The notes: generated by a model not told the origin, from the sequence alone. 64,000 nt of DNA from Candidatus Micrarchaeia archaeon (GCA_049964835.1 JBMFWW010000002.1:16701-80700), one strand, 5' to 3'; positions 9,324 through 62,768 are shown, numbered from the stretch's first letter. Made by a program: numbers and translations.

Positions 9324-9394
9324 TTATTTTTTTAAAGAAAAATTGTTTTTCAGGAAAGTTCTAATAATATAAATGTTAATATATTATTGATAAA

Positions 9395-11004: not shown

Positions 11005-11036
11005 ATTTTAATAAATTATCTTTAATAGGTTGTTGA

Positions 11037-26273: not shown

Positions 26274-27581
26274 ATGATGGATGATGAAACATTTTTTAAT
26301 TTTGAAGACGAAATACTAAACACATTGGCTACAAAACTTAGCGGTTTTCAAACTGATGAAGATATAAAAAATGTAATATTAAAAACAGCAAGAATAATTG
26401 ATCCTGAGATAACAAATGAAGATTTAGACAGGCTTCAAAAAGATATTAATGATTTTTATCCTATAACCAAATACATAAACAACGACGATGTAGAAGACGT
26501 AATGGTAAACAATACTAAAGACATCTTTGTATATGATAGTGAAAAAGGACCGGTAATGGTTCCTGAAAGAGTTGAAGACAAAAGAAAGTTAGAACGTCTT
26601 GTGAAAAAGTTTAAGATGTACGCAACTGTTGTATCTGCTAATAAGAACATATACGATGTTCATCTACCAAACAAATCAAGAGTAAATATTGTGGAGTCAC
26701 CACTAGGCGCAGATATAACAATACGAAACTTCAGGCAAAAAGCGCTTAGCGCAATAGATTTAATAAACATGGGTGAAATGAGCTATAATATGGCAGGAAG
26801 GTTTTGGCTATACTCTGAAGGACTTAAGATAAGACCTGCAAATATGTTGATTGGGGGAATGCCTGCAGCTGGTAAAACAACACTTTTAAATTCGATGTTT
26901 AGTTTTTTCAGACCAGAACAAAGAATAATTACAATAGAAGATACATACGAGCTTAATACTGAAACACAAGACAACTGTGTTAGGTTAGAAACAAGCTCAG
27001 AGGTATCCTTAGAAGAGCTAGTTCAAAATGCATTGAGAATGAGGCCAGATTTATTAATAGTTGGAGAAGTAAGAGGAAAAGAAGCAAAGGACATGATGAC
27101 AGCAATGAATATAGGTAAGATTTCAATGAGTACAATACACGCAAGCACAGCCAGAGATATAATAACAAGACTTGAACATACTCCTATGAATGTTGAAAAG
27201 GATATTATTCCATTAATAGATGCTCTTGTTCTAGTATCACAAATTAATATAGATGGAAAGTTTGTAAGGAAAATAACACAAATATCTGAAATTTCTGGAA
27301 TAGAAACGCAGGTTTTGCTTTCTGATTTGTATAAATACGATTATAAAACAAGAAAGGGTTCGGACATACTTCCTAGTGTTACCTACAGGGATACACTTGC
27401 AAGTCTTACTGGGTTGCCACCAAGTGAGATAGTGCGCGAGGAGAGAAGAAGAGCAAAGATTCTTGAAGCAATGAACAAAAAAGGCATAAGGGGCTTAAGA
27501 GATATAAATGAGGTTTGCAGAGAGTATTACGACAATCCTAATCGAGTATTAGCTAAACTTGAGATAGCAGACTCGGTTTAG
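26274..27581 (+). CDS. type II/IV secretion-system ATPase (archaeal PilB/ArlI/VirB11 family)
   Basis: Walker A is GGMPAAGKTTLLNS, Walker B is PDLLIVGEVRG, and the His box is MSTIHAS. Confidence 0.8.
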   Translation: MMDDETFFNFEDEILNTLATKLSGFQTDEDIKNVILKTARIIDPEITNEDLDRLQKDINDFYPITKYINNDDVEDVMVNNTKDIFVYDSEKGPVMVPERVEDKRKLERLVKKFKMYATVVSANKNIYDVHLPNKSRVNIVESPLGADITIRNFRQKALSAIDLINMGEMSYNMAGRFWLYSEGLKIRPANMLIGGMPAAGKTTLLNSMFSFFRPEQRIITIEDTYELNTETQDNCVRLETSSEVSLEELVQNALRMRPDLLIVGEVRGKEAKDMMTAMNIGKISMSTIHASTARDIITRLEHTPMNVEKDIIPLIDALVLVSQINIDGKFVRKITQISEISGIETQVLLSDLYKYDYKTRKGSDILPSVTYRDTLASLTGLPPSEIVREERRRAKILEAMNKKGIRGLRDINEVCREYYDNPNRVLAKLEIADSV

Positions 27582-31698: not shown

Positions 31699-34600
31699 AT
31701 GGGCAAAATTATAAAGTTAAATCATAAATCAAATAAAAAAAAAGTAAAAGAGCAATCAGCAATAGAGTATGTAATGAGTTATTCTTGGGCAGTAATAATA
31801 TTGCTTGCTGTTGTAATAATCTACTTTTTTGCCAATAGTAACCAAACTACATATACTCCAACTTCTTGTTATATATCCCCGCAATTACCCTGTTACCAAT
31901 TAATAATAGGTTCTAACTCTATAGAAACTACAGCAAAACTCGTATTTACAAATGATCTTAATAAGCCAATATACTTTTATTCACAACCATTTTCAATAAA
32001 ATTCACTCCATCTTCCAACTATTACTCTGGTACCTGTGTACCAACTACAGCTAATGAGGGTTCAAATGTAACTTGCACTGTAGTAGCAAGTGGTTATTCA
32101 ATCTTACAAGGTAGTGAAGCAGAACCGACATTTTATTTATCATATGCAGAGTGTGTATCTCAAAACTGTAATATTAATCAAAGACAGTTAATAACTCTGA
32201 CAACATCTGGTAGCGGCACATCATATATATACAATCTTTCAGGCAATTTTATAGTTCCACAACCAGTTTTTACTAATTATTTTTATCTTGTTACAAATTC
32301 ATTCCCATCTATTGGTGGGAGTACCTCTCCAGGATATGGTGTTTACGCGCAGGGAACAAATGTAATTATCTCCGAATCTCCATCTTCTGGGTATACTTTC
32401 AGTGATTGGACCTGTTCTGGAACTGGCTGTTATTCCGGCACAAGTCCCTCTGAAAAAATAACTATAAATTCAAATACTATAGAAACGGCTAGTTTCCAGC
32501 AAATACCTATTTATACACTAACTACAAATGCAGTACCATCGGGATCTGGAAGTGTTTCTCCAACATCTGGTTCTTATGAACAAGGATCACAAGTTACTAT
32601 TTTGGCATCTGCAAATCCCGGTTACACATTTAATGGTTGGACCTGTTCTGGAACTGGCTGTTATTCTGGCACTTCACCATCAAATACAATAACAATAACT
32701 TCAAATACAGTTGAAACTGCAAATTATAAATTTAATACTGGTTACTTTGGCTATGTCCCACCATTTAACGGCGAATCAAATCAAACTTATTTGTATTCAT
32801 CACCTTATGCTTACTACTCCCATGCTCCACAACAGATAACTTTGTGGAGTGATCTATTCCATAATCTTGTGCTAAACAACTTAAATACGCCATCATCAAC
32901 ATCAACTATACTTAATTTGATTGGAACTGTAAACAATGGTTATTTATATGAATTAGCATTGGGAGAACCTGCTGACACATACTATCCAGAAATCACTATA
33001 ATAAACACCTCTAAAAATTCAGTACAAAAAACAATATTTATTCAAAATGCCACAGTTGCAAATGAAATAACAACATCACAAGATACTTTATTTGCAAATG
33101 TTAATTCTACTGGTTCTTTATACATATTATCTTCAAAATCAGCCGGATCTCTTTCGCAAGTATCACTTATTGTAGCAAATACTTCCTTACTTAATGATGC
33201 GATGCAATCAAGTAATCTATTCTATAACATTACAAAAATCACATCAATTAATTTGTCTAATACCACATATGATGGAAATATAGTATTTCCAGAAGAATTT
33301 ACAAATTATCCTATCTCTAGCTTCTTAATGCTTGGCAATTACGCATATATAGCTAATCAATCTACCCTGTATATACTTAATACCTCAAAATCAAATGTTG
33401 TTGCTAATTCTATGATAATATATCCTAAAAATAAGGTTGAAACTGGAGCATTAGATTCAGGAATTATAAATATGCAAACTAGTGGAAATTATGTTTATTT
33501 TGATATCAGCAATACAACAGTTTCAAGTAGCACTAATTATAATACAGTAATTAGCGTACTTAATACAACATCTTTAAAAGTAACAAACATCACCATAGTT
33601 AATTCACCAAATAATTATACTGTCGGCGCAGTTATAAGTAATCATTTCAAAAAATTATACATTCTATTATCAAATCAAACTTTATACACTATTGACTTGA
33701 GCAGCAATGGACTAGGAACAGTTTCTAGAATACAAGATTTTGCAACAACAACTCCATTTCCTAGTACAACTTCTACATTAGAAAGCTCTCTCGGATCAGA
33801 ATACAATATGTTATTAAGTGCCAATGGTACAGAGTTGTATGTAGGTACTACGTATTCTAATGGGTATAATGGTTATGCAATATATAATCTTGTAACTGGA
33901 ACTGAAGTAGGATTTATGGGTACGCTCAATGCAGTAAGGGTTGTAGCCCCACAAAATAATTATAATATATATACAACTGCTAGTCAAAATCAAGCTATTG
34001 AAGATTATGCTACTTTAGGTGGTATAGTTGGAGTTTATAGCAGTGCATATAATATAAATAAAGAAAACATAACAATTCCTTCAAATTTTATAGCCACTGC
34101 TTTGTTATTTGATGGAAATATTTTAAGAATAGGCGGTTATAACTATAGTGACAATTCATTAACTCAAGATGAAGGTTTATTAACAACGGCAAATGTAATG
34201 ACAGATACAATGAATTCAAATGTTATATCTCCAGAAGCTGAAATTAGTTATTTTGCAAATACCGGTTATCCAATGACTCCTACTCAAACTATAATGCACA
34301 TGCCTTCTATAATGGATTTCTCAGAGCCCACGGGTCAGTTCTTTTCTATACCTGCTTTGCTTGGTGGAACATCTAATTTATTCCTTATACAACAAGCATC
34401 TCAAGTATTTCCAACTAATGAAGTTTTAGATGGACTTGCTGCTGTTTCAAGTAATACTCAAGCATCTGATTGTGTTTCTTCTTCAGAATGTATTAGTAGC
34501 GGTAGTTATCTTACTGCATATAGTAATATTGATGCATACAGTTCATACGCTACTCCTTCTGGCGTTGCGTGTGTTGCAGAAGCAAATTATGGTATTGCAT

Positions 34601-35529
34601 CAACGGCAACAGTTAACTTATACGGAATGATAGAAAATGCAAATAATCTGTTAGTTATGTCTTATCAAGAAAATAAACCAAGTACTCAAGATTTTTCAAG
34701 TATATATACTGCCCCTACTCCTGGCGGAATGGGTGCTAATGCAGCTTCAGCATACTTTAATTATTGGTTAAATGATACAATCGCATCTCAATACGCTATT
34801 GCTGACTCTCAAACCATTACGCAAATTGCTGCAGGAACTGGAGATGCAGGTGGTTTTGGCTGTTCAAATCCTCCAAATCCAAATGAATTTATAACAGATA
34901 CCTATTGGACAATGACTCAGAGTGCATTGGAAAGTCAAGCGTTATCAAATTCAATAGTTATGTTACCACCAGCAATATTAGCAAATAATACAAATAATGT
35001 TTATATGTTCAACATAGCAGCATCGAATGGTGGGCTGGCCGTTTATAATATAGCTACGAGCACATACTCTGAGATACCATTACCAAAGTTTTCATCAACA
35101 GCTTATGTTTATCCTAATGATCAAATTCCATCTTTGGCAGAAACAACAAATGGTACCTTTGTATTTGCCGGTTACCAACCATTTTCTGGATATTGTGCTA
35201 TTGCAGTAATAAATACACAATTAGAAAAGGTTGTAAAGGTAAATTATGGACTTCCAGTAGGTTCTTGTGAAGGGGATACTATAGTAACTCCTGATGGAAA
35301 ATACTTATATAGTGGTATCGCAGAAGGTCTTAATAGCGAATATGTATTTAGTGTTCATGATCTTATAACTTACAACTCTTCAGAAATAAATTATACCGGT
35401 TCTCTTTATAACTATTCAATAGCTAATATTGGAACTATGACTATGCCTATTACTTATGGAATATATGCTCCTCAAATGAACTACTATCAAGGCATTGCAA
35501 TATCAACAGATACGCAGCCTATACCGTGA
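31699..35529 (+). CDS. giant (1276 aa) surface protein with an archaeal class III (type IV pilin-like) signal peptide
   Basis: The N-terminus is basic leader KKKVKEQSAIEYVMSYSWAVIILLAVVIIYFF (QSAIEY motif plus hydrophobic helix). Then come two tandem units of about 70 aa containing GYTF(S/N)(D/G)WTCSGTGCYSGTSPS, resembling InlB B-repeat/Listeria-Bacteroides repeats. The remainder is a long N-x-S/T-rich region with beta-propeller-like strings (SANGTELYVGT, TPDGKYLYSG, KKLYILLSNQTLYTIDL). Confidence 0.6.
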   Translation: MGKIIKLNHKSNKKKVKEQSAIEYVMSYSWAVIILLAVVIIYFFANSNQTTYTPTSCYISPQLPCYQLIIGSNSIETTAKLVFTNDLNKPIYFYSQPFSIKFTPSSNYYSGTCVPTTANEGSNVTCTVVASGYSILQGSEAEPTFYLSYAECVSQNCNINQRQLITLTTSGSGTSYIYNLSGNFIVPQPVFTNYFYLVTNSFPSIGGSTSPGYGVYAQGTNVIISESPSSGYTFSDWTCSGTGCYSGTSPSEKITINSNTIETASFQQIPIYTLTTNAVPSGSGSVSPTSGSYEQGSQVTILASANPGYTFNGWTCSGTGCYSGTSPSNTITITSNTVETANYKFNTGYFGYVPPFNGESNQTYLYSSPYAYYSHAPQQITLWSDLFHNLVLNNLNTPSSTSTILNLIGTVNNGYLYELALGEPADTYYPEITIINTSKNSVQKTIFIQNATVANEITTSQDTLFANVNSTGSLYILSSKSAGSLSQVSLIVANTSLLNDAMQSSNLFYNITKITSINLSNTTYDGNIVFPEEFTNYPISSFLMLGNYAYIANQSTLYILNTSKSNVVANSMIIYPKNKVETGALDSGIINMQTSGNYVYFDISNTTVSSSTNYNTVISVLNTTSLKVTNITIVNSPNNYTVGAVISNHFKKLYILLSNQTLYTIDLSSNGLGTVSRIQDFATTTPFPSTTSTLESSLGSEYNMLLSANGTELYVGTTYSNGYNGYAIYNLVTGTEVGFMGTLNAVRVVAPQNNYNIYTTASQNQAIEDYATLGGIVGVYSSAYNINKENITIPSNFIATALLFDGNILRIGGYNYSDNSLTQDEGLLTTANVMTDTMNSNVISPEAEISYFANTGYPMTPTQTIMHMPSIMDFSEPTGQFFSIPALLGGTSNLFLIQQASQVFPTNEVLDGLAAVSSNTQASDCVSSSECISSGSYLTAYSNIDAYSSYATPSGVACVAEANYGIASTATVNLYGMIENANNLLVMSYQENKPSTQDFSSIYTAPTPGGMGANAASAYFNYWLNDTIASQYAIADSQTITQIAAGTGDAGGFGCSNPPNPNEFITDTYWTMTQSALESQALSNSIVMLPPAILANNTNNVYMFNIAASNGGLAVYNIATSTYSEIPLPKFSSTAYVYPNDQIPSLAETTNGTFVFAGYQPFSGYCAIAVINTQLEKVVKVNYGLPVGSCEGDTIVTPDGKYLYSGIAEGLNSEYVFSVHDLITYNSSEINYTGSLYNYSIANIGTMTMPITYGIYAPQMNYYQGIAISTDTQPIP
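32284..32727 (+). repeat. internal tandem duplication (2 units of about 70 codons) within the giant surface protein gene
   Basis: The units span roughly aa 196-266 and aa 272-343. They share a 30-nt identical core, TTGGACCTGTTCTGGAACTGGCTGTTATTC, at 32406-32435 and 32637-32666. Confidence 0.8.
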
Positions 35530-43375: not shown

Positions 43376-43491
43376 TGCCAAACGGTCATAGTAGCAGGGA
43401 AACGCCCGAACCCATTCCGAACTCGGAAGCTAAGCTTGCTAACGATATGAAATACTGCTGTAATAGTGGGAAAGCATATTGCTGTTTGGCA
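43376..43491 (+). rRNA. 5S ribosomal RNA (solitary)
   Basis: The terminal helix is TGCCAAAC...GTTTGGCA. The core GGTCATAGTAGCAGGGAAACGCCCGAACCCATTCCGAACTCGGAAGCTAAGC closely matches archaeal (Thermoplasma-type) 5S. No other rRNA gene is adjacent. Confidence 0.85.
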
Positions 43492-47479: not shown

Positions 47480-48966
47480 ATTCCAGTCGATGCTGCTGGA
47501 GGACACTGCTATCAGATTTCGACAGCCATGCAAGTCAACATTCTCACTTGAGAGTGTGGCGTACGGCTCAGTAACGCGTGGTCAATCTACCGTAGAGAAG
47601 GGCATAACCTTGGGAAACTGAGGCTAATATCATATAGTTTAAGACACCTGGAAGGAGTTTTAAACTAAAGGGTTGCGAATTGGAGCATTACCGCTCTACG
47701 ATGAGACTGCGTCGGATCAGGCAGATGGCGGGGTAACGGCCCACCATACCTTTGACCCGTAGGGGATATGTGAGTATGAGCCCCGAGAAGGGCACTGAGA
47801 CAAGGGCCCTAGCGCTACGGCGTGCAGCAGGCGCGCAAACTCCACAATGCGCGAAAGCGTGATGGGGGGAGTCTGAGTGGTAGGTTTTTAACTTACCTTT
47901 TGCCAAGTTTAGCAAGCTTGGAGAATAAGTGCTGGGTAAGACCGGTGGCAGCCGCCACGGTAATACCGGCGGCACGAGTGGTGTTCACTATTATTGGGCT
48001 TAAAGCGTCCGTAGCTGGCTGAAACAGTCTTATGTGAAATATAGGTGCTTAACATCTATACGTGCATAAGATACCTTTCGGCTAGGGAGTGGGAGAGGTC
48101 AAGAGTACTTATGGGGTAGGGGTTAAATCCTGTAATCCTATAAGGACTACCTGTGGCGAAGGCGCTTGACCAGAACACATCCGACAGTGAGTGACGAAGG
48201 CTAGGAGAACGAATCGGATTAGATACCCGAGTAGCCCTAGCAGTAAATTATGCAGACATTGGTGTTGCATTTATCTTGAATAAGTGCAGTACCGTAGGAA
48301 AACTGTTAAGTCTGCCGCCTGGGGAGTACGGCCGCAAGGTTGAAACTTAAAGCAATTGGCGGGGGAGCACACAAGGGGTGGATGCTACGGTTTAATTGAA
48401 TTCAACGTCGGAAATATCACCTGGAGCGACGGCAGTGTGAAGGCCAGACTAAAGATCTTGCCTGACAAGCCGAGAGGTGTTGCATGGCGATCGTCAGTTC
48501 GTGGTGTGAACTATCCGGTTAAGTCCGGTAACGAACGAGATCCTCACTAACAGTTGCAACTAATACAGTTGTGTATTGGGCACTCTGTTAGTACCGCCTG
48601 CGTTTAAGCAGGAGGAAGGAGAGGGCCACGGTACGTCAGTATAGCCCGAACCTCCAGGGCTACACGCGGCATACAAAGGTTGGTACAATGGGCTGCCACT
48701 CAGAAATGAGGAGCTAATCCCCTAAAACCAATCTAAGTTCGGATTGAGGGTTGAAACTCACCCTCATGAAGTTGGAATCCCTAGTAATCGCTTGTCACTA
48801 TCGAGCGGTGAATATGTCCCCGCTCCTTGCACACACCGCCTACCAAGTCATCCAAGTGAGGTCTTAGTGATACAGCATCGTAATAGATACTGTTGAACTA
48901 AGGTTTCGTGAGGGGGGCTAAGGTATAACAAGGTATCCGTAGGGGAACCTGCGGATAGATCACCTC
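47480..48966 (+). rRNA. 16S ribosomal RNA (solitary, no linked 23S or spacer tRNA)
   Basis: The 5' end ATTCCAGTCGATGCTGCTGGAGGACACTGCTATCAG compares with the archaeal ATTCCGGTTGATCCTGCCGGAGG. The 530-loop GTGGCAGCCGCCACGGTAATAC is present. The 3' end is GTAGGGGAACCTGCGGATAGATCACCTC. The length is about 1487 nt. Confidence 0.95.
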
Positions 48967-49020
48967 GAAACTTTTTAAGAAGGTTTCAAGCTACTTAATA
49001 TTTAGTGTGCGTAAAATTAG

Positions 49021-52374: not shown

Positions 52375-53448
52375 ATGGCTAAGAAAAATATGAATAATAA
52401 AAAAAGCGAGCCCAATCTCATAATAAAACCTATAGGTAAGTTGGGCGGCTTAGACGGAATACATGTACTTTTAATATTGCTACTTATTGTGGCGCTAGCA
52501 TTACTTTTATACACATCTTACGCTAAGCAGTCAATATTGATAATAACAAATCAGAGTACAAATCAAACATTTAATAATACGCAGTGTCAATATGGAGTTT
52601 ATAAAAATTCATGCGTAACTCCAGTTCACAATGCTACTCAAATCAAAAAAATATTTGAAAATCTTTTGGCAAGTTATACAACAGTAAACAATCAAGACTC
52701 TTTAATTCCATTTATTTCAAATACTTCACAAATAAAAGAGTATTATTCTCCATTAACTAAGACTTGGGTAGTTACAGTTATAGATAAGGATATACTAACA
52801 AATAGTACCTTCTTATTCTCTGCAATAATAAATGACACAAATACTAGTAAGATAATACCTTCGATACAGACAGTACTCCCATCCCTTAAATCAAAGAATC
52901 TAGTTACAGGTAATGGTTATATTGATTTAACAAATAAAACATCATGCATAACTGAAAATACAACACCTGTCTATTGGTTTATAGATCCATACTCTCCTGG
53001 AAGTATAAATAGTCTTTCTTACTATGAACAAATACAAAAATCATTCAACAAGAGCATATCGCCTGATTTATACATACTTTATACACAGTACTCTCAAGAA
53101 ATTGCGAATGAGTATGGATTACATAATGCAACTATGATGGGCAAGTATTTATTCTGTGCTTCAAAGCAGCCGAACTTTGATGAATTTGCAAGCACATTAA
53201 ATTCAAGTTATCAAAATTTATACATATCAACATCTGAACTTAATTCCATAGCAAAGAACTCAGACCTAAACATAACACAGCTTTCTTCGTGCATTTCAAC
53301 TGCAGGAACAGCTATAAATAGGCAAGCTATTGTAGCAAATTACTACAATGTAACAGCCAGTCCTTTTGTTGTAATAGGTTGCAAGTATCAGACCATACCT
53401 CAGATGGCATATCAAGCAATATGCAGCATTAAAAACTACACTTGCTGA
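52375..53448 (+). CDS. membrane-anchored extracellular protein with a C-terminal DsbA/thioredoxin-like domain lacking the CxxC motif
   Basis: The N-terminal basic stretch is followed by the TM helix HVLLILLLIVALALLLY. The C-terminal half aligns by eye to the DsbA-like (Thioredoxin_4) pattern: VYWFIDPYSPGSINSL occupies the position of the usual D..CP.C motif, ...LFCASKQPNFDEF... follows, and SPFVVIGCK corresponds to TPtf.inGk. Confidence 0.5.
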   Translation: MAKKNMNNKKSEPNLIIKPIGKLGGLDGIHVLLILLLIVALALLLYTSYAKQSILIITNQSTNQTFNNTQCQYGVYKNSCVTPVHNATQIKKIFENLLASYTTVNNQDSLIPFISNTSQIKEYYSPLTKTWVVTVIDKDILTNSTFLFSAIINDTNTSKIIPSIQTVLPSLKSKNLVTGNGYIDLTNKTSCITENTTPVYWFIDPYSPGSINSLSYYEQIQKSFNKSISPDLYILYTQYSQEIANEYGLHNATMMGKYLFCASKQPNFDEFASTLNSSYQNLYISTSELNSIAKNSDLNITQLSSCISTAGTAINRQAIVANYYNVTASPFVVIGCKYQTIPQMAYQAICSIKNYTC

Positions 53449-53531
53449 TGTCTTACTGATGTTGAAGTACTAGAAGAAGATAAGCCAGAAAGACTAAAAG
53501 GTTTATAAGCTGAATTGTTATATGTAATAAT

Positions 53532-55040
53532 ATGTTAAAGCTACAAAGTGCAATTGAATATTTAATTACGTACGGCTGGGCAATTCTTATAATAGCTATT
53601 GTGCTTGTTACATTATTCGAGCTTGGATTATTTACACCTAAACCAATAAAGCAATGTGTTATCGAAGCTGGGTTTTCTTGCAGTAATTATTATCTAAATT
53701 CGCAAGGAGTTCTTACATTTACATTAAAACAACAAACATCTAATCCTGTAAATATTACAGGAATAGCATGCTATGAAAATGGGACATTACTTTCAGGACA
53801 GGCGCCATATAATCCTCCTACAAATGAAGTTTTCATGCCAGTAGGTACATCTTATACATTCTATGCACAATGTTACTCTAGTAATACAATACCATTTTCT
53901 GGAAATATAGGTGATTATTTTACTGGATCAGTAGCTATTTATTATAAAGATGCAATAACTCATCTTACTGAGTTAGCAGTTGGCTCATTAACAGTTCCAG
54001 TAAGTACAGATACGCCTACATTATTAAGTGCAAATCCAGATACTGAAAATTCAATAAAGATAACTATAATAAATATTGCTTCTAATACCGTTCCACAGAA
54101 CTTCCAGCAAGAACTTTCCATCAATCCAAGTGCATTTGCACAGTACGGACTAAATCAAAATATGAGCAATCTCATATTCACAACAGGAGCATACGGCAGC
54201 GGAAGTCCAATAGATGCTTGGATAGAAAGCGGCGCGAGCAACACCGCAACAAACTCTATAATATGGTTAAATTTACCAAGTAGTATTTCACCTAATGGAG
54301 GAACAGAAACTGTATATATGAGTTTTCTTACAGATAACACTCCCGTCGCTTCGGGCTACACTGGTTATGCTCCACAATTATACTGTGCGTCTGGATGTTT
54401 TCAAACAACTTATGCAGAATATGATAATGGAAATAATGTGTTTCCTGTTTATTTCAATGCAAATACATTATTATCTAGATTTACAACATATGATGTCGGA
54501 ACCTTGTCACAAACTACACTTAATGGAGAACCAGTAATATCTATTGTAGGAGATTCAATTTTTGGTTATGGGTGGGCTGGTTTTTCAAATCCAATTCCTT
54601 CTTCATTCATAATAGACGGATGGATATATACAACACAATCGTCAGATATTGTTGGTTTTACATCACAAGCATCAACTTTAGGAAATGGCTATTTATTTGG
54701 TGCAGGAACTGGCGCAGGAGATACATATGTTAGTATTTCAAAAATGACATCAGGTTCAGTTTCTAATTTGGCAAATTCAGGTCCAGAAAATGCAAATAAT
54801 TGGGAATATGTACAAATTAGTTATAATAATGGGGCTATGAATATGCAAGGAGGAACATCCCCTTCAAATTTCTTATACAGCATAAGTGCTACAGATACCT
54901 CTTATACTTCAGGTTATGTAGGAATAGCTGAATCAGGTAACACTGGAAATAATTATTATCGTTATATGTTTGTTCGTGCCTACCCGCCAGAAGGAAAGAT
55001 GCCAATAGTTTCATGCAGCGTAGGTATATGCAACAACTGA
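53532..55040 (+). CDS. class III signal peptide (type IV pilin-like) surface protein with a DUF2341-like central domain, paralogue A
   Basis: The N-terminus is MLKLQSAIEYLITYGWAILIIAIVLVTLF. The central segment NLIFTTGAYGSGSPIDAWIESGASNTATNSIIWLNLPSSISPNGGTETVYMSF fits the DUF2341 pattern (DirF...L.ywiE.w....a.vWVkvp.i.a.....iymyy). Conserved Cys pairs are present, and the C-terminus is VSCSVGICNN. Confidence 0.6.
   Translation: MLKLQSAIEYLITYGWAILIIAIVLVTLFELGLFTPKPIKQCVIEAGFSCSNYYLNSQGVLTFTLKQQTSNPVNITGIACYENGTLLSGQAPYNPPTNEVFMPVGTSYTFYAQCYSSNTIPFSGNIGDYFTGSVAIYYKDAITHLTELAVGSLTVPVSTDTPTLLSANPDTENSIKITIINIASNTVPQNFQQELSINPSAFAQYGLNQNMSNLIFTTGAYGSGSPIDAWIESGASNTATNSIIWLNLPSSISPNGGTETVYMSFLTDNTPVASGYTGYAPQLYCASGCFQTTYAEYDNGNNVFPVYFNANTLLSRFTTYDVGTLSQTTLNGEPVISIVGDSIFGYGWAGFSNPIPSSFIIDGWIYTTQSSDIVGFTSQASTLGNGYLFGAGTGAGDTYVSISKMTSGSVSNLANSGPENANNWEYVQISYNNGAMNMQGGTSPSNFLYSISATDTSYTSGYVGIAESGNTGNNYYRYMFVRAYPPEGKMPIVSCSVGICNN
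54120..54252. repeat. inverted repeat tract 1, copy A (133 nt, 1 mismatch to 60043-60176)
   Basis: I hand-aligned this against the reverse complement of 60043-60176. The only difference is ATA versus ATC in ...GTCCAAT(A/C)GATGC.... Identity drops abruptly on both sides. Confidence 0.9.
54354..54430. repeat. inverted repeat tract 2, copy A (77 nt, 2 mismatches to 59866-59942)
   Basis: The sequence is GGCTACACTGGTTATGCTCC(A/G)CAATTATACTG(T/C)GCGTCTGGATGTTTTCAAACAACTTATGCAGAATATGATAATGG. Confidence 0.9.
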
Positions 55041-55049
55041 GTTGTTATT

Positions 55050-55643
55050 ATGAAAAAAGTATTTATTTACCCTAAGTTTTATAGAACTCTAAAAAGGGGT
55101 CCACAAGTTATTCTACCAAAAGATATTGGAATAATACTTTCTTATGCCTGTATAAATAAGGATAGCGTCTGTGCCGATGCCGGTACTGGCAGTGGTTGGC
55201 TTGCAGTAAGTATGGCTAGAGTAGCAAAGCATGTTTATACTTACGATATAAGGGAGGATTTCATAAAAATAGCACAAAAAAATGTTGAGATTGCAAATTT
55301 AAATAATATAACAATAACAGAATGTGACGTTACAAAAAAAATAGATGCGAAGAATGTAGATATATTTACATTAGATATGCCTAACGCTGAAAAAGCGCTA
55401 AAGAATGTAAAGAAAGCACTCAAAGAAAATGGTATTGTAGTTGGATACTTACCTCACATGGAACAGGTAGTTGCATTTACAAAAAAATTAAATGCATTAA
55501 AATTTGAAGAGCCATATGTTTTAGAATGTATACTGAGAGATATTTTAGTTAGAGAAAATGGAATGCGTCCTTCTACAAAAGGCATTTGGCATACTGCGTA
55601 TTTGGTTTTTTCAAGAAAACCTGCTAAAAATTTAGATCAGTAA
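55050..55643 (+). CDS. trmI: tRNA (adenine-N1)-methyltransferase TrmI/Gcd14 family
   Basis: RGPQVILPKDIGIILSYACI, the SAM motif DAGTGSGWLAVSMA, and FTLDMPNAEKAL...LKENGIVVGYLPHMEQV are present. Confidence 0.75.
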   Translation: MKKVFIYPKFYRTLKRGPQVILPKDIGIILSYACINKDSVCADAGTGSGWLAVSMARVAKHVYTYDIREDFIKIAQKNVEIANLNNITITECDVTKKIDAKNVDIFTLDMPNAEKALKNVKKALKENGIVVGYLPHMEQVVAFTKKLNALKFEEPYVLECILRDILVRENGMRPSTKGIWHTAYLVFSRKPAKNLDQ

Positions 55644-55756
55644 AGTTGAAAATTTAAAAAGTTTTAAATAAATTATGTGATTAATACTATAGATACATAT
55701 AAAATTAATTAAAAGTTATCAAACAACTACAAAATACTAAATACAATGGTGAAAAA

Positions 55757-56056
55757 ATGGCAGACGAAGAAAAAATGGAAAAAACTACGGGAGAAAATAT
55801 TGTTTTGATCGGTAAGAAGCCAGCAATGAACTACGTTCTTGCCGTAGTCACACAATTTAACAACGGAGCTAAAAGTGTAAAGATAAGAGCAAGAGGAAAT
55901 GCAATCTCAAGAGCTGTAGATGTAGCAGAAATAGCAAAGAATAGATTTGTAACAGACGTAAATGTATCTAGCATTGTGATTGGTTCTGAAGAGCTATCTA
56001 ACGAAGATGGTACAAAATCTAAGGTAAGCTCAATAGAGATAATGCTTGGAAGATAA
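55757..56056 (+). CDS. albA: chromatin/RNA-binding protein Alba
   Basis: The sequence is [51 protein letters not shown]. Confidence 0.9.
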
Positions 56057-56138
56057 TCTTATTTTTTATTTTTTATTTCTCTTTTTTATTTTAAAAATTC
56101 TTATAAATCTTCTTATTTATATAATACTGGTGTTTTAA

Positions 56139-57437
56139 TTGAATAATTCTTACCGGACTAATTACATATCAGATATAGACAATACTTTGATAGGCAAAAA
56201 AATAAAAATCTCAGGCTGGGTTCATGAAGTTCGAGATATAGGTCACATAATCTTTTTATTAATAAGAGATAATACAGGAATAATACAGGTAACAGCTAAA
56301 AAAGGAGTTACTGATGATGAAGTAATGAAATCATTATTACTTCCTAAAGAAAGCGTCGTTTCACTAACTGGGACAGTAGTAGAAAATAAGCAAGCAAAAA
56401 TGGGTATCGAATTACTTCCAACAGATATTAAAAATCTAAATCCAATAACTAGTACTATACCATTCGAGGTAACCGGAAAGGTACCCGCCGATTTAGATGT
56501 CAGATTAAACTTTAGATATATTGACTTAAGAAGAGCGCAAAGCACATCGATCTTTAAAATAGAATCTACCGTTCTTAAAACTTTTAGAAAGACTTTAGAA
56601 AAAGAGGGTTTTCTAGAGATACGTACACCATCTATTGTTAAAGAAGCTACGGAGGGTGGAACTGAATTATTTAAACTTCAGTACTTTGAAAGCGATGCAT
56701 ATTTAGCTCAATCTCCACAGCTGTATAAGCAGCTTACAGTTATAGGCGGCTTTGACAGAGTTTTTATGGTTGCTCCAGTATTTAGAGCTGAAAAGCATAA
56801 CACATTATTTCATCTAAATGAAATAACTCAAATGGATGTAGAGATGGGTTTTTCAGATCATAACGACGCAATAAAAATTCTTAAGAAATCAGTTTTAAAG
56901 ATAATAGAAGCGGTAAAGAAGGAAAATACAAAAGAGCTTGAAATACTTAATGTAGAACTTGCAGCAGGAAAAATTAAAGAAATTACTTATAAAAAAGCGA
57001 TAGAAGAGTTATCGAAAAACGGCTCAAAGATATCTTACGGAGATGATTTCTCAAAAGAGGACGAAATTAATTTAAGTAAAATATTTGGCGATTTGCTTGT
57101 GGTAAAAGAGTATCCCACAAATATAAGAGCATTTTATAGTATGCCTAACCAAAAAGACCCTACACTATCAAATTCTTTTGACTTTATATACAAAGGTTTA
57201 GAGTTATCTAGTGGCGCTCAAAGAATTCACATACCTGAATTACTTGAAGAAGCGCTTGTAAAAAGAGGCAATAATCCTAGAGCATTTGATTTTTATATAA
57301 ATGCATTTAGAAATGGAGCTCCACCACATGCAGGATGGTCAATAGGTCTTGAAAGATTTGTAATGAAACTTACCAATTCGCAGAATATACGAGAATGCGT
57401 TCTATTTCCAAGAGATAGAACAAGACTCATCCCTTAG
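56139..57437 (+). CDS. aspS: aspartyl-tRNA synthetase (archaeal type)
   Basis: It has a TTG start and an OB-fold N-terminus. The class II motifs are FRAEKHNTLFHLNEITQMDVEM and GAPPHAGWSIGLERFVM. Confidence 0.9.
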   Translation: MNNSYRTNYISDIDNTLIGKKIKISGWVHEVRDIGHIIFLLIRDNTGIIQVTAKKGVTDDEVMKSLLLPKESVVSLTGTVVENKQAKMGIELLPTDIKNLNPITSTIPFEVTGKVPADLDVRLNFRYIDLRRAQSTSIFKIESTVLKTFRKTLEKEGFLEIRTPSIVKEATEGGTELFKLQYFESDAYLAQSPQLYKQLTVIGGFDRVFMVAPVFRAEKHNTLFHLNEITQMDVEMGFSDHNDAIKILKKSVLKIIEAVKKENTKELEILNVELAAGKIKEITYKKAIEELSKNGSKISYGDDFSKEDEINLSKIFGDLLVVKEYPTNIRAFYSMPNQKDPTLSNSFDFIYKGLELSSGAQRIHIPELLEEALVKRGNNPRAFDFYINAFRNGAPPHAGWSIGLERFVMKLTNSQNIRECVLFPRDRTRLIP

Positions 57438-57445
57438 GTTTTAAA

Positions 57446-58099
57446 ATGTCCAAAATGTTAAGTGAAAAAGAAGCCAACGAAATGCTTAAGATACTTAAAA
57501 AGGAATATCCAAATGTACATTATTACTTAAATTACAAAACACCTCTAGAGTTGTTAGTATGTGCAATACTTTCTGCACAAACTAGAGACGAAGTTGTAAA
57601 TAAAGCAACACCAGAATTATTTAAAAAGTTTGATACTGCGCATACGTTTTCAAAAGCCACACCAGATCAGTTAAATGAATATATAAAAAGTATAACCTTT
57701 TTTCAGGCCAAATCAAAAAACATAATAGAAGCATGTAAAGTCATTGTTGAAAAATATGATGGAAATGTTCCAAGAACAATGGGTGATCTTTTGTCTCTTC
57801 CCGGAATAGGGAGAAAAACAGCAAATACTATTTTAATAAATGCTTATGGGATAGTTGAAGGTATACCAGTAGATACTTGGGTTATAAAATTATCTACCAG
57901 AATGGGTTTTACAAAAAATAAAAATCCTGATAAAATAGAAAATGATCTTATGAACTTATTTAAAAAAGAGTACTGGAAGGATTTAGCTTATCTTTTTAAA
58001 ACACATGGAAAAGCTATTTGTAAATCTACCGTTCCTATCTGCAGCAAATGTTCAGTATCAAAATTATGTCCAAAGATAGGTGTAGAAAAATATCTCTGA
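57446..58099 (+). CDS. nth: endonuclease III
   Basis: The HhH-GPD motif is LPGIGRKTANTIL and VDTWV is present. The C-terminal 4Fe-4S cluster is CKSTVPICSKCSVSKLC. Confidence 0.9.
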   Translation: MSKMLSEKEANEMLKILKKEYPNVHYYLNYKTPLELLVCAILSAQTRDEVVNKATPELFKKFDTAHTFSKATPDQLNEYIKSITFFQAKSKNIIEACKVIVEKYDGNVPRTMGDLLSLPGIGRKTANTILINAYGIVEGIPVDTWVIKLSTRMGFTKNKNPDKIENDLMNLFKKEYWKDLAYLFKTHGKAICKSTVPICSKCSVSKLCPKIGVEKYL

Positions 58100-58103
58100 T
58101 AAT

Positions 58104-59381
58104 ATGGAATTAATATCTGATTTTCACACACATTCAAAATATGCGGGAGCCTGTAGTGAAAACTTAACAATTAAAAATATATCTAGAACATGTGTTGAAA
58201 AGGGAATAAATTTAATAAGTACCGGAGATTTTACACATCCATTGTGGTTCAAAGAAATAAAGGAAAATTTAATTGATACTGGAAGTGGCATATTTAAAAA
58301 TAAAAACACTAGCACCTCTCCATACTTTATACTTGGCACAGAGGTATGTACAGTATATAATAAAAATAATGAATCAAAAGGTATATTTTCAAGAGCTCCC
58401 GGAATAAAAAAGGTTCACAACTGCATACTTGCTCCAAATTTAGAAACAGCAGAATCAATAAATGTGGAGTTAGCAAAGTACGGTTCTTTATCTATCGATG
58501 GAAGACCGATTTTAAATATTTCTACACCTGAACTTGTTGAAAAATTAATCTCTATAAATAAAGATATTTTTATATTTCCGGCACATGCATGGACACCATG
58601 GTTTGGTGTTTTTGGCTCAATTTCTGGATTCGATTCGATAAAAGAAGCTTATGAAGATCAATCAAAACATATACATGCTATAGAGACCGGGCTTAGCAGC
58701 GATCCTTCGATGAACTGGAGAATATCAAGTATTGATAAGTATGCTTTAATATCTGGTAGTGATGCACATTCTCCACAGAAGTTAGGTAGAGAAGCAACAA
58801 TCATAAAATTAAATGATCTTACATATAAAGATGTAATAAACTCAATAATTTCTAAAAATATATCTTATACAGTAGAGTTTTTTCCAGAGGAGGGCAAATA
58901 TCACTTCGATGGACATAGAAACTGTAATATTTCATTATCACCTGAAGACTCAAAAAAATACAATAATTTGTGCCCAAAATGCAGGAAGAAATTAACCTTA
59001 GGCGTGCTAAATAGAGTAGAGCAATTATCAGATAGAGATGAAGGCTATGTTTTAAAAAATGCGCCTCCTTTTATAAAGATGGTGCCTTTAATAGAGGTAA
59101 TATCTTACATTTACTCAAAAGGTAAAGCATCAAAAACTGTACTTGAAACTTATAATAATCTTATAAAAACTTTTGGAACAGAGTTTAACTTGCTACTAAA
59201 TGCAGATATAGAAAAGATAAACTCTTGCGATGTAAATTTAGGAAAAGCAATTGATTCTATAAGATCAGGAAAGATAAATATAAAACCAGGTTACGATGGA
59301 GTTTTTGGAATTATAGATATTCTATCACGAGAGCCAAATGAGAAAAATAAAGGTTACCAGAAGACAATTCAGGAATTCTAA
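58104..59381 (+). CDS. endoQ: PHP-domain endonuclease Q-like protein
   Basis: The PHP motif DFHTHSKYAGACS sits at the N-terminus. GSDAHSPQKLG and a Zn finger, CPKCRKKLTLGVLNRV, are present. The length of about 425 aa is as in archaeal EndoQ. Confidence 0.65.
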   Translation: MELISDFHTHSKYAGACSENLTIKNISRTCVEKGINLISTGDFTHPLWFKEIKENLIDTGSGIFKNKNTSTSPYFILGTEVCTVYNKNNESKGIFSRAPGIKKVHNCILAPNLETAESINVELAKYGSLSIDGRPILNISTPELVEKLISINKDIFIFPAHAWTPWFGVFGSISGFDSIKEAYEDQSKHIHAIETGLSSDPSMNWRISSIDKYALISGSDAHSPQKLGREATIIKLNDLTYKDVINSIISKNISYTVEFFPEEGKYHFDGHRNCNISLSPEDSKKYNNLCPKCRKKLTLGVLNRVEQLSDRDEGYVLKNAPPFIKMVPLIEVISYIYSKGKASKTVLETYNNLIKTFGTEFNLLLNADIEKINSCDVNLGKAIDSIRSGKINIKPGYDGVFGIIDILSREPNEKNKGYQKTIQEF

Positions 59382-59392
59382 TCTTCACAATA

Positions 59393-60790
59393 TCAATTAC
59401 AGCTTCCTATACTACATGAAACTGAAGGTATCTGCCCGTTTACCGGGTAATCTGCCAATGCTAGATAACTTACTGTAAAGTAGACGTACGTATTTATAGA
59501 ATTTGCATTTAAGCTGTCTATAGTATAAAGAAACATATCATTGTTGGGTGCTAGTGACATCATTTGTAATTGACCTTTACTAACCCCTGGATCAGGACTA
59601 CAATAATAACCTGTAGTTAACCAGCACCAGATCACTCCTCCAGGACCTGAAACCATAGGTACATAAGAAAGTAGAATTCCGTTGCTTGTATCTATATTGC
59701 TGTTTATCGATAGCAAACCTTCATACTGGTTATTACCACACCCTATTGTATTCATTGTATAACCATTATCTATAGTAAGTCCAGAAGAGCACGCTTGTGG
59801 GTTACTAAATATATTGCTTAGTTGGGTTCCTTTAAAGTCGCTATAAAGATTAAACAACTGCGCCCCATTATCATATTCTGCATAAGTTGTTTGAAAACAT
59901 CCAGACGCGCAGTATAATTGCGGAGCATAACCAGTGTAGCCTAATGAAACTGGTTCGTTGCTAGAGACAATATTCATATAGATATTTTCTTTCCCGTTAT
60001 TTGCATTTATTCCGGAAGGAAGTTTAACCCAAATTGTAGATGTTGTTGCGGTGTTGCTCGCGCCGCTTTCTATCCAAGCATCGATTGGACTTCCGCTGCC
60101 GTATGCTCCTGTTGTGAATATGAGATTGCTCATATTTTGATTTAGTCCGTACTGTGCAAATGCACTTGGATTGATGCTTATTTCTTGTTGAAATCCAGAT
60201 GGCACTGGCATATTTTGTGAGTTTGTTATAGTCAACTGATCAGAAAATTCGACACCAACCTGCGCTGGATTTACTCCTCCAGTTTCTGTTGGTTTTATAG
60301 ATACGGTACCCTCTAACTCTCCAGCAATTCCATTTTTAGGGTTTACATAGGTTACAGACAATTCACCAGAAAAGTAGCCGCCAAAACTGCTATTATACAT
60401 TTTATTGTTTGCATAACATTGTGTATAAAAGCTACCAGAACCGTCAGGGGATAAATAAAATTGACCCAAACTTGTACCCGGCTTTTGGTAATTAATTGTG
60501 TTTGTACTTTCATAACATGCTATTCCTGTAACATTTATTGGCTGATTACCACTGTTTAACAATGTTAACATAAGTATTCCATTTGTATTCATTACATAAC
60601 TTTGGCAAACTACCCCATTATTTAATAAACATTGATTTATAGGTCCTGGAGAAAAAACACCAAGAAGATAAAGTCCAAAGAGAGCTATTGCTATTATTAA
60701 CAATGCCCATCCATGAGTAATCAAGTACTCCACTGTACTTTGTAGTTTAACTGTATTTTTAACACTTTTAACTTTAAAAATTCCGGCCAT
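59393..60790 (-). CDS. class III signal peptide (type IV pilin-like) surface protein with a DUF2341-like central domain, paralogue B
   Basis: I place the start at the internal ATG (60790; MAGIFKVKSVKNTVKLQSTVEYLITHGWALLIIAIALFGL). The longer track ORF would overlap the divergent gene at 60852. The protein shares 100 percent identical segments with paralogue A: SINPSAFAQYGLNQNMSNLIFTTGAYGSGSPIDAWIESGASNTAT and GYTGYAPQLYCASGCFQTTYAEYDNG. The C-terminus is VSCSIGSCN. Confidence 0.6.
   Translation of the reverse strand: MAGIFKVKSVKNTVKLQSTVEYLITHGWALLIIAIALFGLYLLGVFSPGPINQCLLNNGVVCQSYVMNTNGILMLTLLNSGNQPINVTGIACYESTNTINYQKPGTSLGQFYLSPDGSGSFYTQCYANNKMYNSSFGGYFSGELSVTYVNPKNGIAGELEGTVSIKPTETGGVNPAQVGVEFSDQLTITNSQNMPVPSGFQQEISINPSAFAQYGLNQNMSNLIFTTGAYGSGSPIDAWIESGASNTATTSTIWVKLPSGINANNGKENIYMNIVSSNEPVSLGYTGYAPQLYCASGCFQTTYAEYDNGAQLFNLYSDFKGTQLSNIFSNPQACSSGLTIDNGYTMNTIGCGNNQYEGLLSINSNIDTSNGILLSYVPMVSGPGGVIWCWLTTGYYCSPDPGVSKGQLQMMSLAPNNDMFLYTIDSLNANSINTYVYFTVSYLALADYPVNGQIPSVSCSIGSCN
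59866..59942. repeat. inverted repeat tract 2, copy B
   Basis: This is the reverse complement of 54354-54430, with 2 mismatches. Confidence 0.9.
60043..60176. repeat. inverted repeat tract 1, copy B
   Basis: This is the reverse complement of 54120-54252, with 1 mismatch. Confidence 0.9.
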
Positions 60791-60851
60791 TTTGTTGTCA
60801 ATACCATTATTAATAGAAAAGAATTTAAATATTTGTTGTAAATAGTAATTT

Positions 60852-62768
60852 ATGTCCGGATTATTTTTTAATAAGAATAGATTGTTTTTTGTATCAGTAA
60901 TTGCATTTTTAATATTTTCACTTACATCGGCATACAATACATCTATACATGTTCCAGCCGTTTTAGGCAATACAAATACGGGGACCATAAGCATCATAAA
61001 CTTAAGTGTTACTTCAGGAAACGGTAAAATCAGTATACTTGGTCCATCTAATGTAGGACAAAGTACATTGAATTCTGCAGAAACAGGTGTAGCTTATGCT
61101 TCTTCATTATTGAATCTTAACGAGTCGAAGTATAACTTCACATATATTATTTATGATAACTTTTCTAATGTCACAGGTCCAAGCGGCGGATTAGCATTTA
61201 CACTGTTAGCAATCTCCGGCTTAAAGCAAGTACCTTTGAAGCAAAACTTCACACTTACGGGTACAATATCAAGCAATGGAGCAGTAGGTCCAATTGGAGG
61301 CATAACTGACAAGGTTGCCGCAGCTAAAAGTTATGGTTTAAATTATGTTCTAGCTCCAGCAGTACAAAATGGAAGTTTTGAGGATACTTTATATTACATA
61401 TCTCAGCAAGTAAATAATATTCCTATAATAGAGGTAGGTAATGTTTCACAAGCCATTCCATATGCTTTTGTTGGTTATACTCCAAAGATAACTAGATTAA
61501 GTTATAATGCCTCAGCTGAAAATTATAATCTAAACATTTCAGAAGCACCATTTTCATGCATAAATTCTTGTAATCAATCGTATTTTGGTGGATTAGTAAA
61601 TTACACATTCGGAATAACATCAAATGAAATAAGCTCTATATCAAATAATTTTTCAACTGTAAAATCACAACTAAATAAAAATTTAAATATTTATAAAGAA
61701 ATTGCATCAAAAGGTTATCTATATACTGGAGCAGATCTTGCATTTCTCGAGTATATAGATGCATACACCTTTGCTAATACAAATAACTACACACTTCCTA
61801 AGGCAAATGCTCTTTTAAACTCAGTTTCAAATTACTGCAATTCATTTGAGCCCACATTTATTACACCTCAAAATTATGAGTATATAATTAGCGGAGAGGT
61901 AAGACAGTCTTGGGCACAACAAAACATATTAACTGCAAAAAGCATACTAAATCAAACACAATCAACTGATAATATAGTAGAAGCAATAAATGTGCTTGGT
62001 GAATCAAGTGCATGGTGTGCTGCAACAAAGATTTTATATCAAGAAGCAAATGCAATAAATCAAAATAATAACTCTACAGTAGCTTATGGATTTTCAAAAA
62101 ATCTTCAGAACATAGTATCTAACGATCTAAATAATCTAAAAACTCAATCTATCTACGCTGGCGATTTATACTACGAAGCAGCAAATGCCAGTTACAATCA
62201 AGGCAGATTTGGCGCAGCTCTATACTCTATCTACTACTTAAAATCAGAGTCAAATACAACTCAGCCATCAAATTACTCCGAATCATATCTAGTAAACAAT
62301 TTAACGAACATATCTGGACTATGGCCTATAGAGTATGCAAACTCTGCAGCTTTCTATGCTAATGAAGCCAATGTATCAAAAAGCAATAGTTCATCTCAAG
62401 GTTATCTAGGAGCATCGTATCCTTTAGCTTTGATTGCAATTTCTATAAATAAGCTAGATTCGTTATTAGCAAATACTCTTGTTCCTGGTGTAAATGTAAG
62501 TACAAACAGTACAGTTTCATCTATTTCAAGTATAAATTCATCATCTGAATCTTCAATATTAGGACTTTTAGGTGAGGAGTTTCAGTCAATAAATACGATT
62601 CAGCAACAGGTAAAGAATCTTCAGCTTGCAATGGAACTTGTAATAATAATGGTCGTAGTACTTCTAGTAGCTCTTATTTACTCATTAGGAAAGGAGTTCT
62701 CATTACGCAGAGAGATACTCAAAAAAGAGCAGCAACTGAAAAATATAACAAGCAAGAAAAGAAGATGA
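60852..62768 (+). CDS. exported, C-terminally anchored Lon-like (S16) serine protease domain protein
   Basis: The signal/TM sequence is LFFVSVIAFLIFSLTSA. The Lon proteolytic-domain motifs are NVTGPSGGLAFTLLAISG (compare GPSAG, catalytic Ser) and GAVGPIGGITDKVAAAKSYG (catalytic Lys). A long N-x-S/T-rich helical region follows. The C-terminal TM helix is LVIIMVVVLLVALIYSL, with a basic tail. Confidence 0.6.
   Translation: MSGLFFNKNRLFFVSVIAFLIFSLTSAYNTSIHVPAVLGNTNTGTISIINLSVTSGNGKISILGPSNVGQSTLNSAETGVAYASSLLNLNESKYNFTYIIYDNFSNVTGPSGGLAFTLLAISGLKQVPLKQNFTLTGTISSNGAVGPIGGITDKVAAAKSYGLNYVLAPAVQNGSFEDTLYYISQQVNNIPIIEVGNVSQAIPYAFVGYTPKITRLSYNASAENYNLNISEAPFSCINSCNQSYFGGLVNYTFGITSNEISSISNNFSTVKSQLNKNLNIYKEIASKGYLYTGADLAFLEYIDAYTFANTNNYTLPKANALLNSVSNYCNSFEPTFITPQNYEYIISGEVRQSWAQQNILTAKSILNQTQSTDNIVEAINVLGESSAWCAATKILYQEANAINQNNNSTVAYGFSKNLQNIVSNDLNNLKTQSIYAGDLYYEAANASYNQGRFGAALYSIYYLKSESNTTQPSNYSESYLVNNLTNISGLWPIEYANSAAFYANEANVSKSNSSSQGYLGASYPLALIAISINKLDSLLANTLVPGVNVSTNSTVSSISSINSSSESSILGLLGEEFQSINTIQQQVKNLQLAMELVIIMVVVLLVALIYSLGKEFSLRREILKKEQQLKNITSKKRR

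Follow-up and report, generated by a model that had tools for sequence, protein, structure and literature searches.

The window analysed here, which is the whole stretch of 64 kb, comes from a metagenome-assembled genome (MAG) of Candidatus Micrarchaeia (DPANN). It carries two paralogous genes for pilin-like surface proteins, termed A and B, which lie tail-to-tail around five housekeeping genes and share two short internal tracts that are almost identical and inverted with respect to each other. These tracts very probably result from recurrent interlocus gene conversion, that is, from concerted evolution restricted to one protein domain, which is a known process. The tail-to-tail arrangement around trmI, albA, aspS, nth and an endoQ-like gene had been read from the DNA in an earlier note, and the open reading frames (ORFs) and domain matches agree with it. 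The features of the locus, with lengths in nucleotides (nt) or amino acids (aa), are as follows:

53532-55040, plus strand: gene A, 502 aa; ORF identical to NCBI ACP5M9_01585 (P0001); an N-terminal helix and stem are followed by a DUF2341-like core and a C-terminal module of type C2
53532-54101, plus strand: N-terminal stem of A, about 190 codons, which follows orthology and is without a conversion signal
54119-54252, plus strand: tract 1, A arm, 134 nt, in the DUF2341-like core
54253-54353, plus strand: spacer, A copy, 101 nt, diverged, 53% identical to the B copy
54354-54430, plus strand: tract 2, A arm, 77 nt, encoding GYTGYAPQLYCASGCFQTTYAEYDNG; this is the 'hinge', the 3' end of the conserved core
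54431-55040, plus strand: C-terminal module of A, type C2, with the conserved tail (..YPPEGKMPIVSCSVGICNN)
55050-59381, plus strand: the five housekeeping genes between the paralogues
55050-55643, plus strand: trmI, GCD14 family, confirmed directly
55757-56056, plus strand: albA, from precomputed Pfam matches on orthologues and tblastn
56139-57437, plus strand: aspS (AspRS), from precomputed Pfam matches on orthologues and tblastn
57446-58099, plus strand: nth (HhH-GPD), from precomputed Pfam matches on orthologues and tblastn
58104-59381, plus strand: endoQ-like gene, TIGR00375/PHP, confirmed directly
59393-60790, minus strand: gene B, with DUF2341, 465 aa; ORF identical to NCBI ACP5M9_01615
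59393-59864, minus strand: C-terminal module of B, type C1, with the conserved tail
59865-59941, minus strand: tract 2, B arm, 77 nt
59942-60042, minus strand: spacer, B copy, 101 nt, diverged
60043-60176, minus strand: tract 1, B arm, the probable recipient

The tracts were checked by repeat finding, BLAST and codon alignment. Tract 1 (54119-54252 in A against 60043-60176 in B) covers 134 nt with a single mismatch and consists of exact runs of 93 and 40 nt; the earlier note had placed it at 133 nt, beginning at 54120. Tract 2 (54354-54430 against 59865-59941) covers 77 nt with 2 mismatches, as had been noted before with B coordinates that were off by one. The two are separated by the strongly diverged stretch of about 100 nt that had been described, in which 54 of 101 positions (53%) are identical. 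Outside the tracts, the N-terminal parts of A and B are moderately similar (52% nucleotide identity) and the C-terminal parts are unrelated (about 39%, with no BLAST match between them), again as first proposed. The arms are collinear without net indel, the sum of the A and B coordinates being 114295 throughout; hence both tracts stand in the same reading frame in both genes, and a crossover within them would give intact chimeras.

The identity of the tracts is far above what the rest of the alignment would give. The longest exact run shared by A and B measures 93 nt, whereas 5000 shuffles of the columns gave no run longer than 27, and at third codon positions there is a run of 31 that none of the 5000 shuffles reached. 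Identical residues are encoded by identical codons in 41 of 43 cases in tract 1 and 23 of 26 in tract 2, compared with 36 of 65 in the N-terminal part (binomial P against the latter of 6e-9 and 3e-4, respectively), so that the identity covers synonymous positions, as had been claimed. Apart from a tandem repeat at 32292-32720, these tracts are the only long self-similarity in the window. Between 52500 and 62000, the inverted repeats lying inside both genes are the coding tracts and one further match of 30 nt (53749-53778/60508-60537, 93%), which spans the invariant stem motif N-I/V-T-G-I-A-C-Y-E and is too short to separate conversion from constraint. A fourth inverted pair in the same interval (21 nt, 81%) lies outside A and B.

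A protein search gave about 100 related family proteins, almost all from MAGs of Micrarchaeota or related DPANN. The convergent arrangement of A and B is present in four other Micrarchaeota lineages, namely FK3.bin92 (L001/L014), the MAS3.bin57 type (L004-L007/L016), the lineage with P0005 and P0017 (L008-L013, four assemblies) and DRTY-16 bin 11 (L015 and L018); a metagenome scan added only L093 and L097 as close syntenic loci. Identity matrices were calculated from a codon alignment of 10 genes, the A and B copies of the five lineages including the window genome. The N-terminal stems group by orthology, with nucleotide identities of 64-83% among A genes and 55-78% among B genes against about 50% between A and B, and the A stem of the window genome follows this pattern (64-83% to its A orthologues, about 50% to any B gene). 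The DUF2341 core behaves differently and clusters by genome: A and B are 83, 81, 74, 89 and 78% identical within the five genomes, compared with 60-80% between genomes. In the region of tract 2 the difference is larger, with within-genome values of 96, 88, 79, 96 and 95% and between-genome values of 56-82%.

The near-identical patches are specific to each lineage. The longest exact runs between A and B are 93 nt in the window genome and 43, 22, 64 and 86 nt in the others, and their positions differ; in four of the lineages none of 5000 shuffles reached the observed run, and in L004 18 of 5000 did. Lineage-specific tracts at differing positions are thus seen in the window genome, L001, L012 and L015/L018, and weakly in L004. 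Within the tracts, orthologues have about 21-35 residues in common, of which only 5-18 are encoded by the same codon, and over the same columns the identity between lineages is 59-74% for tract 1 and 65-81% for tract 2. Since the stems follow orthology, the core follows the genome and each lineage has patches of its own, recurrent interlocus gene conversion is the explanation we hold with high confidence. The proposal of recent gene conversion or homologous exchange made from the window alone is strengthened by the patches in the four other lineages, and the comparison with relatives that it had called for showed tracts that are not frozen at synonymous sites, the codons of the orthologues differing freely.

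For tract 1 a direction can be suggested. Both genes of the window genome carry the A-type signature TTGxYGSGSPI..WIESGASNTAT, and their tract 1 resembles A orthologues (65-70% identity) more closely than unconverted B orthologues (59-63%); on this sequence evidence, A was probably the donor, and B was probably overwritten by it.

In mechanistic terms, A and B would be old paralogues within a Micrarchaeota family of modular pilin-like surface proteins, whose members appear to begin with a hydrophobic N-terminal helix and a beta-sandwich stem, to continue with the conserved DUF2341 core and a C-terminal module that varies, and to end in a short tail that is again conserved. The tracts would be footprints of recent non-reciprocal intrachromosomal homologous recombination, presumably by RadA-dependent double-strand-break repair templated by the other paralogue; the related genome L177 has a RadA/Rad51 gene. 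Conversion would be limited to the DUF2341 core because only this part is similar enough for strand invasion and heteroduplex formation, and it would be bounded by the diverged stems on the 5' side and the non-homologous C-terminal modules on the 3' side, where heterology would stop tract extension. The two tracts around the 101-nt spacer may go back to two distinct short events or to a single heteroduplex that was repaired in patches. Conversion of this kind would follow incidentally from the conservation of the domain and would not be a device maintained by selection.

Comparable processes have been described elsewhere. In Salmonella, the tufA and tufB genes are in inverse orientation and undergo gene conversion with processive tracts, >96% of which are contiguous and which are blocked by heterology (PMC5485169). 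Long-lasting concerted evolution has been described in prokaryotes (PMC6053082), and concerted evolution is also known for the archaeal mtrA paralogues (PMC4632066). The A/B pair shares with tufA/tufB the within-genome similarity that exceeds similarity to orthologues, the identity at synonymous sites, the inverted orientation and the stopping of tracts at heterology without a fixed inversion. It differs in that homogenisation is restricted to a single internal domain (about 330 nt) while the genes have otherwise diverged, in that the tracts are short and mosaic, and in that the products, in a DPANN archaeon, are surface proteins whose C-terminal modules are not homologous.

The best of the alternatives, though an unlikely one, is that a third source, another DUF2341 paralogue or imported DNA, supplied both tracts to A and B. 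In that case the two genes would not be a closed pair but fellow recipients within a larger recombining gene family. A third DUF2341 paralogue, ACP5M9_04020 (P0101), does exist in the same MAG outside the window, as a partial protein of 201 aa on a 12.5 kb contig; its C-terminal module is 82% identical to that of B at the amino acid level, with the first approximately 85 residues nearly identical. Its visible hinge, however, is of an S0/S3-like type, unlike the tracts of the window genome. In the L012 lineage, a third gene, on contig L017, has a hinge tract of 129 nt that is 92-95% identical to the A and the B copy, and the recombining network therefore exceeds the A/B pair. The G+C content at third codon positions (GC3) also bears on the question: it is 0.40-0.42 in tract 1 of the window genome compared with 0.15-0.22 in the flanks, and the converted tracts reach 0.5-0.6 in L012 and about 0.36 in tract 2 of L001, against about 0.2 genome-wide. 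Of the four lineages in which conversion tracts are clear, three show the raised GC3 and L015/L018 does not. This is compatible with a donor of higher GC, but it is equally explained by GC-biased gene conversion in an AT-rich archaeon. Tract 1 bears the signature of the A orthologues, and neither the 64 kb window nor any of the fetched loci contains a further copy of the tracts; both observations speak against a third donor.

Contig L017 (MAS3.bin106) has further features. At 8707-11637 it encodes a 977-aa family member with C-terminal YVTN-like beta-propeller repeats, and this gene and the next one share direct repeats of 288 and 198 nt that are 94-96% identical (10627-10914/12510-12797). Several pilin-like genes of L017 have near-identical N-terminal segments of about 95 nt in common with L008 genes, which indicates that conversion also acts on the signal-peptide/helix region.

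For 82 family members split at the hinge, stems and C-terminal modules were clustered separately with strict cut-offs; single-linkage clustering of the modules at a loose threshold had chained everything together and was redone more strictly. Throughout the family, stem and module meet without exception at ...YAxYDNG, where tract 2 ends on its 3' side. No fewer than eight module types are found on the A-type stem. The C2 module of A in the window genome is 68-69% identical (aa) to modules on unrelated S2 stems (P0010, P0012, P0014), and its C1 module on B is 48-53% identical to those of the B orthologues. Modules C7, C0, C3, C6, C9 and C11 each occur on two stem types, and C5 is joined to an A stem in L004 and to a B stem in P0017. 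The swapping of C-terminal modules on constant stems, which had been predicted for A and B, is thus borne out across the family at the end of tract 2, but not in the form of an A/B inversion.

Exchange at the same boundary can be seen among strains of another Micrarchaeota species (GCA_021821605.1 type). Contigs L174, L173 and L182 are 99.8% identical over 7-11 kb up to the end of the hinge, after which their modules are unrelated and the DNA downstream differs. Contig L173 passes from locus 1 into locus 2 (L177, from the same MAG as L174) inside a stretch of 68 nt that is identical in both parents (10631-10698), and after the switch it is 99.2% identical to locus 2 through the stop codon and a further 360 nt. 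A real crossover is a plausible origin of this junction, the alternative being an assembly chimera. The latter is made less likely by the fact that the longest run shared by the parents (119 nt) and the crossover interval (68 nt) are both shorter than the assembler k of 141. A clean cassette replacement between hinge and tail is seen at locus 2 when L183 is compared with L177: identity is 97.8% as far as the hinge, the next approximately 545 nt are unrelated, and from the C-terminal tail on identity is 90.2%. In bacteria, recombination between homologous flanks is a general means by which allelic cassettes at surface-structure loci are replaced; L183 and L177 likewise swap a C-terminal module between conserved flanks, but here the flanks are intragenic (the hinge and a tail of about 57 nt) and the hinge is also common to paralogues at other loci.

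Two of these contigs show additional peculiarities. In L182, the variant module is followed by the C-terminal part of a gene that by eye resembles an rve-type transposase. The first 119 nt of L183 (1-119) are a 100% identical inverted copy of L177 6618-6736, about 270 nt upstream of the start of the collinear match, and this copy is probably an assembler artefact at the contig end.

It can tentatively be proposed that the hinge (...GYTGYAPQLYCASGCFQTxYAxYDNG) and the tail (...YPPNGxMPS...) serve as intragenic recombination joints at which adhesin-like modules pass between pilin-like stems of Micrarchaeota. Such exchange might take place between paralogues at different loci, including by reciprocal crossovers that rearrange the chromosome, and between strains.

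A second alternative to conversion, and a very improbable one, takes the inverted tracts themselves as crossover sites. A reversible, recombinase-independent inversion of the approximately 5.8 kb between them would swap the C-terminal modules of A and B and give a shufflon-like phase or antigenic variation. The geometry allows it, in that the tracts are inverted, in frame and collinear and a crossover would yield intact chimeras, and stems and modules are naturally interchangeable in the family. The C5 modules on the A stem in L004 and the B stem in L012 (P0017), which are 50% identical over 195 aa, and the joining of locus 1 to locus 2 in L173 within a 68-nt identical stretch of the same domain also fit.

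The arrangement of the locus in relatives does not. The four syntenic lineages share the order X357-(DUF460)-A+ trmI+ alba+ aspS+ nth+ endoQ+ B- LonC+, where plus and minus denote orientation, and the orientation of the middle genes relative to both flanks is the same in all five lineages, including the window genome, and in at least 12 independent assemblies. In the more distant lineage of L022/L023/L097, the orientation of trmI to endoQ relative to B and LonC is kept as well. The flipped orientation was not found in any of these five lineages and at least 12 assemblies; one arrangement is seen across the sampled lineages, and it is therefore old and stable, having been fixed since before these lineages split. 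Gene order in related genomes, which the earlier note had named as a check, thus gave no inverted arrangement.

The distribution of modules points the same way. C1 occurs on B-type stems only (window genome, L001, L004, L018, P0015, P0016) and in none of nine A-stem lineages, and an exhaustive HMMER search found this module only on B stems or inside giant proteins. No protein with an A stem and C1 was present among the 1.84 billion representatives searched, a weak negative as the database is clustered at 50% identity and could hide chimeras. A word-indexed search with the C-terminal module of B returned a single match and missed known relatives, and is not a census. Within about 10 kb, in the window genome and at the orthologous loci, no recombinase gene was found, the neighbours being housekeeping genes; the sole mobile-element gene among the neighbourhoods is an IS605 OrfB in L001. 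Homology of 134 and 77 nt would support only rare RecA/RadA-type crossovers, not a switch. Crossovers with inversion of the 5.8 kb are physically possible and rare isomers may occur, but inversion is not a detectable or fixed outcome, and the switch that had been postulated is not supported, in view of the constant orientation, the absence of C1 from the A stems searched and the lack of a nearby recombinase. No new switching mechanism is revealed at the A/B locus.

A known system of the postulated kind is the shufflon of the IncI plasmid R64, in which the Rci recombinase provides pilV with a constant N-terminal part and alternative C-terminal ends by DNA inversion. The A/B pair has a similar plan of a pilin-like protein with a constant N-terminus and alternative C-terminal ends, but it is without a site-specific recombinase, sfx-type repeats, a cluster of invertible segments or an observed inverted isomer; between 52500 and 62000 there is no sfx-like repeat set and there are no short crossover repeats bounding several segments. 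In addition, A and B are both complete and separately promoted, with essential genes between them: each is full length and has a start codon and its own TATA-like upstream box. In Neisseria, antigenic variation of pilE occurs by gene conversion from silent, promoterless partial pilS cassettes. Non-reciprocal recombination in pilin-type genes with conserved segments as anchors is common to both systems, but in A and B it is the conserved domain that is copied and not the variable part, no silent promoterless cassettes were found in the window, and module replacement in the A/B family is seen at the evolutionary or strain level only.

The remaining explanations are the weakest. That the tracts are a nucleotide-level functional element under selection (a structured RNA, a regulatory site or a recombination signal) could account for identity at synonymous sites and for sharp edges, but it is scarcely credible, as the orthologues in four lineages differ freely at synonymous sites over the same columns, which rules out a frozen element, the patch positions vary by lineage, and there is no Rfam match at E <= 1 in 53000-61500. 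An embedded RNA was dropped mainly because of the synonymous divergence among orthologues; the Rfam search of the whole window, which gave rRNA and tRNA only, agrees with this. An assembly or binning artefact from merged paralogue reads or a chimeric contig, which might be considered for a single MAG with no independent assembly of the organism, has a negligible chance of being correct: assemblers do not make short internal identical patches between genes whose flanks differ on either side, the two ORFs are uninterrupted and in frame, and the same kind of patch occurs in other lineages, whose loci are represented by sequence-identical copies in up to 4-5 independent assemblies, which argues against an artefact.

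Recurrent gene conversion has to be weighed against several points that do not favour it. The A and B proteins are present in one MAG only (exact-protein contig look-ups for A and B gave no record beyond it), and the timing, direction and crossover frequency are inferred. By analogy with tufA/tufB, where >96% of tracts are contiguous, two tracts split by a spacer with 47% divergence would be unusual. A third or foreign donor may have contributed to both genes because ACP5M9_04020 is present in the same MAG and GC3 is raised in tract 1. Finally, contig L173, although from another species, suggests that true crossovers at the hinge are possible.

The assignment of the two proteins to pilin-like adhesins was examined by domain and structure searches. 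DUF2341 (PF10102) is found in B at residues 232-278 with 27.9 bits, above the Pfam gathering cut-off of 23.4; A gives no Pfam match to it at E <= 0.01 despite a near-identical sequence in this region. The DUF2341-like domains that had been ascribed to both proteins thus hold for B by the Pfam threshold, and for A only by its near-identity to B; the orthologues of A and B show 'faint' PF10102 matches. At the N-terminus, where the earlier note had placed class III signal peptides, a candidate for such a peptide is seen in a K-L-Q-S-x-x-E-Y-L motif (K-L-Q-S-A-I-E-Y-L) that precedes about 20 hydrophobic residues, and the combination of K-x-Q-S-x-x-E-Y-L and hydrophobic stretch is invariant across the family. 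The AlphaFold model of A (pLDDT 65, with a poor C-terminal module) has a helix at residues 2-30 followed by beta-sandwich domains. No pilin family of Pfam or NCBIfam matches A or B, the isolated C-terminal modules have no Pfam match, and a sequence search of the PDB gave no solved homologue. Foldseek against the PDB returned only low-TM matches of the beta-sandwich, CBM/jelly-roll-like type, which were not used for function.

PilY-type adhesins, and proteins that are predicted to sit at the tips of archaeal pili, have been described as containing DUF2341 (PMC4858521). This domain is shared by the proteins studied here, and their window also contains a gene for a T2SSE-family type II/IV secretion ATPase (26274-27581, plus strand), about 26 kb from the A/B pair, which may be part of a pilus assembly machinery. 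A Peptidase_A24 gene (weak match) lies 2 kb from a family member in L174. The modular pilin PilB of Streptococcus sanguinis (PMC8179133) likewise has a pilin-like N-terminus with a grafted C-terminal module. A and B themselves are candidate pilus subunits and putative pilus-borne adhesins. The window encodes another protein with a pilin-like N-terminus (1276 aa, 31699-35529, plus strand), which is 28-32% identical to A and B over about 60-95 aa and contains divergent InlB B-repeat domains; within its gene there is a tandem duplication (32292-32489/32523-32720) with a period of about 231 nt and 71% identity.

Some further observations concern the locus and its surroundings. The ORF of B could be extended upstream of its annotated start at 60790 by 207 nt (60791-60997, minus strand) to give 534 aa, and this extension overlaps the opposite-strand start of a gene for a LonC-like membrane protease (60852-62768, plus strand). 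A similar extension in P0018/P0019 probably stems from the LonC overlap rather than from translation. A DUF460 gene (160 aa) stands between X357 and gene A in all relatives (9500-9982 in L001/L004, 3308-3790 in L012). It is absent from the window genome between X357 and A (53449-53531), and tblastn of the whole window finds none. In the FK3.bin92 lineage, an IS605-type OrfB/TnpB gene (HTH_OrfB_IS605 and OrfB_IS605; L001 12163-13403) lies between trmI and albA, and nth is missing from this locus. The 16S rRNA (47480-48968) and 5S rRNA (43378-43490) genes of the window are unlinked and stand alone about 4 kb apart, with no 23S rRNA gene in the window.

What is new at the A/B locus is another example of a known process, and the module shuffling at the level of the family is the more interesting lead. 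Homologous recombination is apparently active and recurrent in this DPANN genome of about 1 Mb, and it shapes the surface proteins that most likely mediate contact with the host. The locus offers a tractable archaeal case of concerted evolution confined to one domain, which can be compared across five lineages, together with a possible signal of GC-biased gene conversion, GC3 being doubled in converted tracts in three of the four clear lineages. The swapping of modules at the same domain boundary, both across the family and between strains, gives a lead, in the form of a testable hypothesis, on how these episymbionts vary their attachment structures. If hinge and tail do act as recombination joints, they would form a recombinase-independent cassette system, driven by homologous recombination, that varies host-attachment structures in a DPANN symbiont, and the conversion tracts of A and B would be the visible idle activity of that system.

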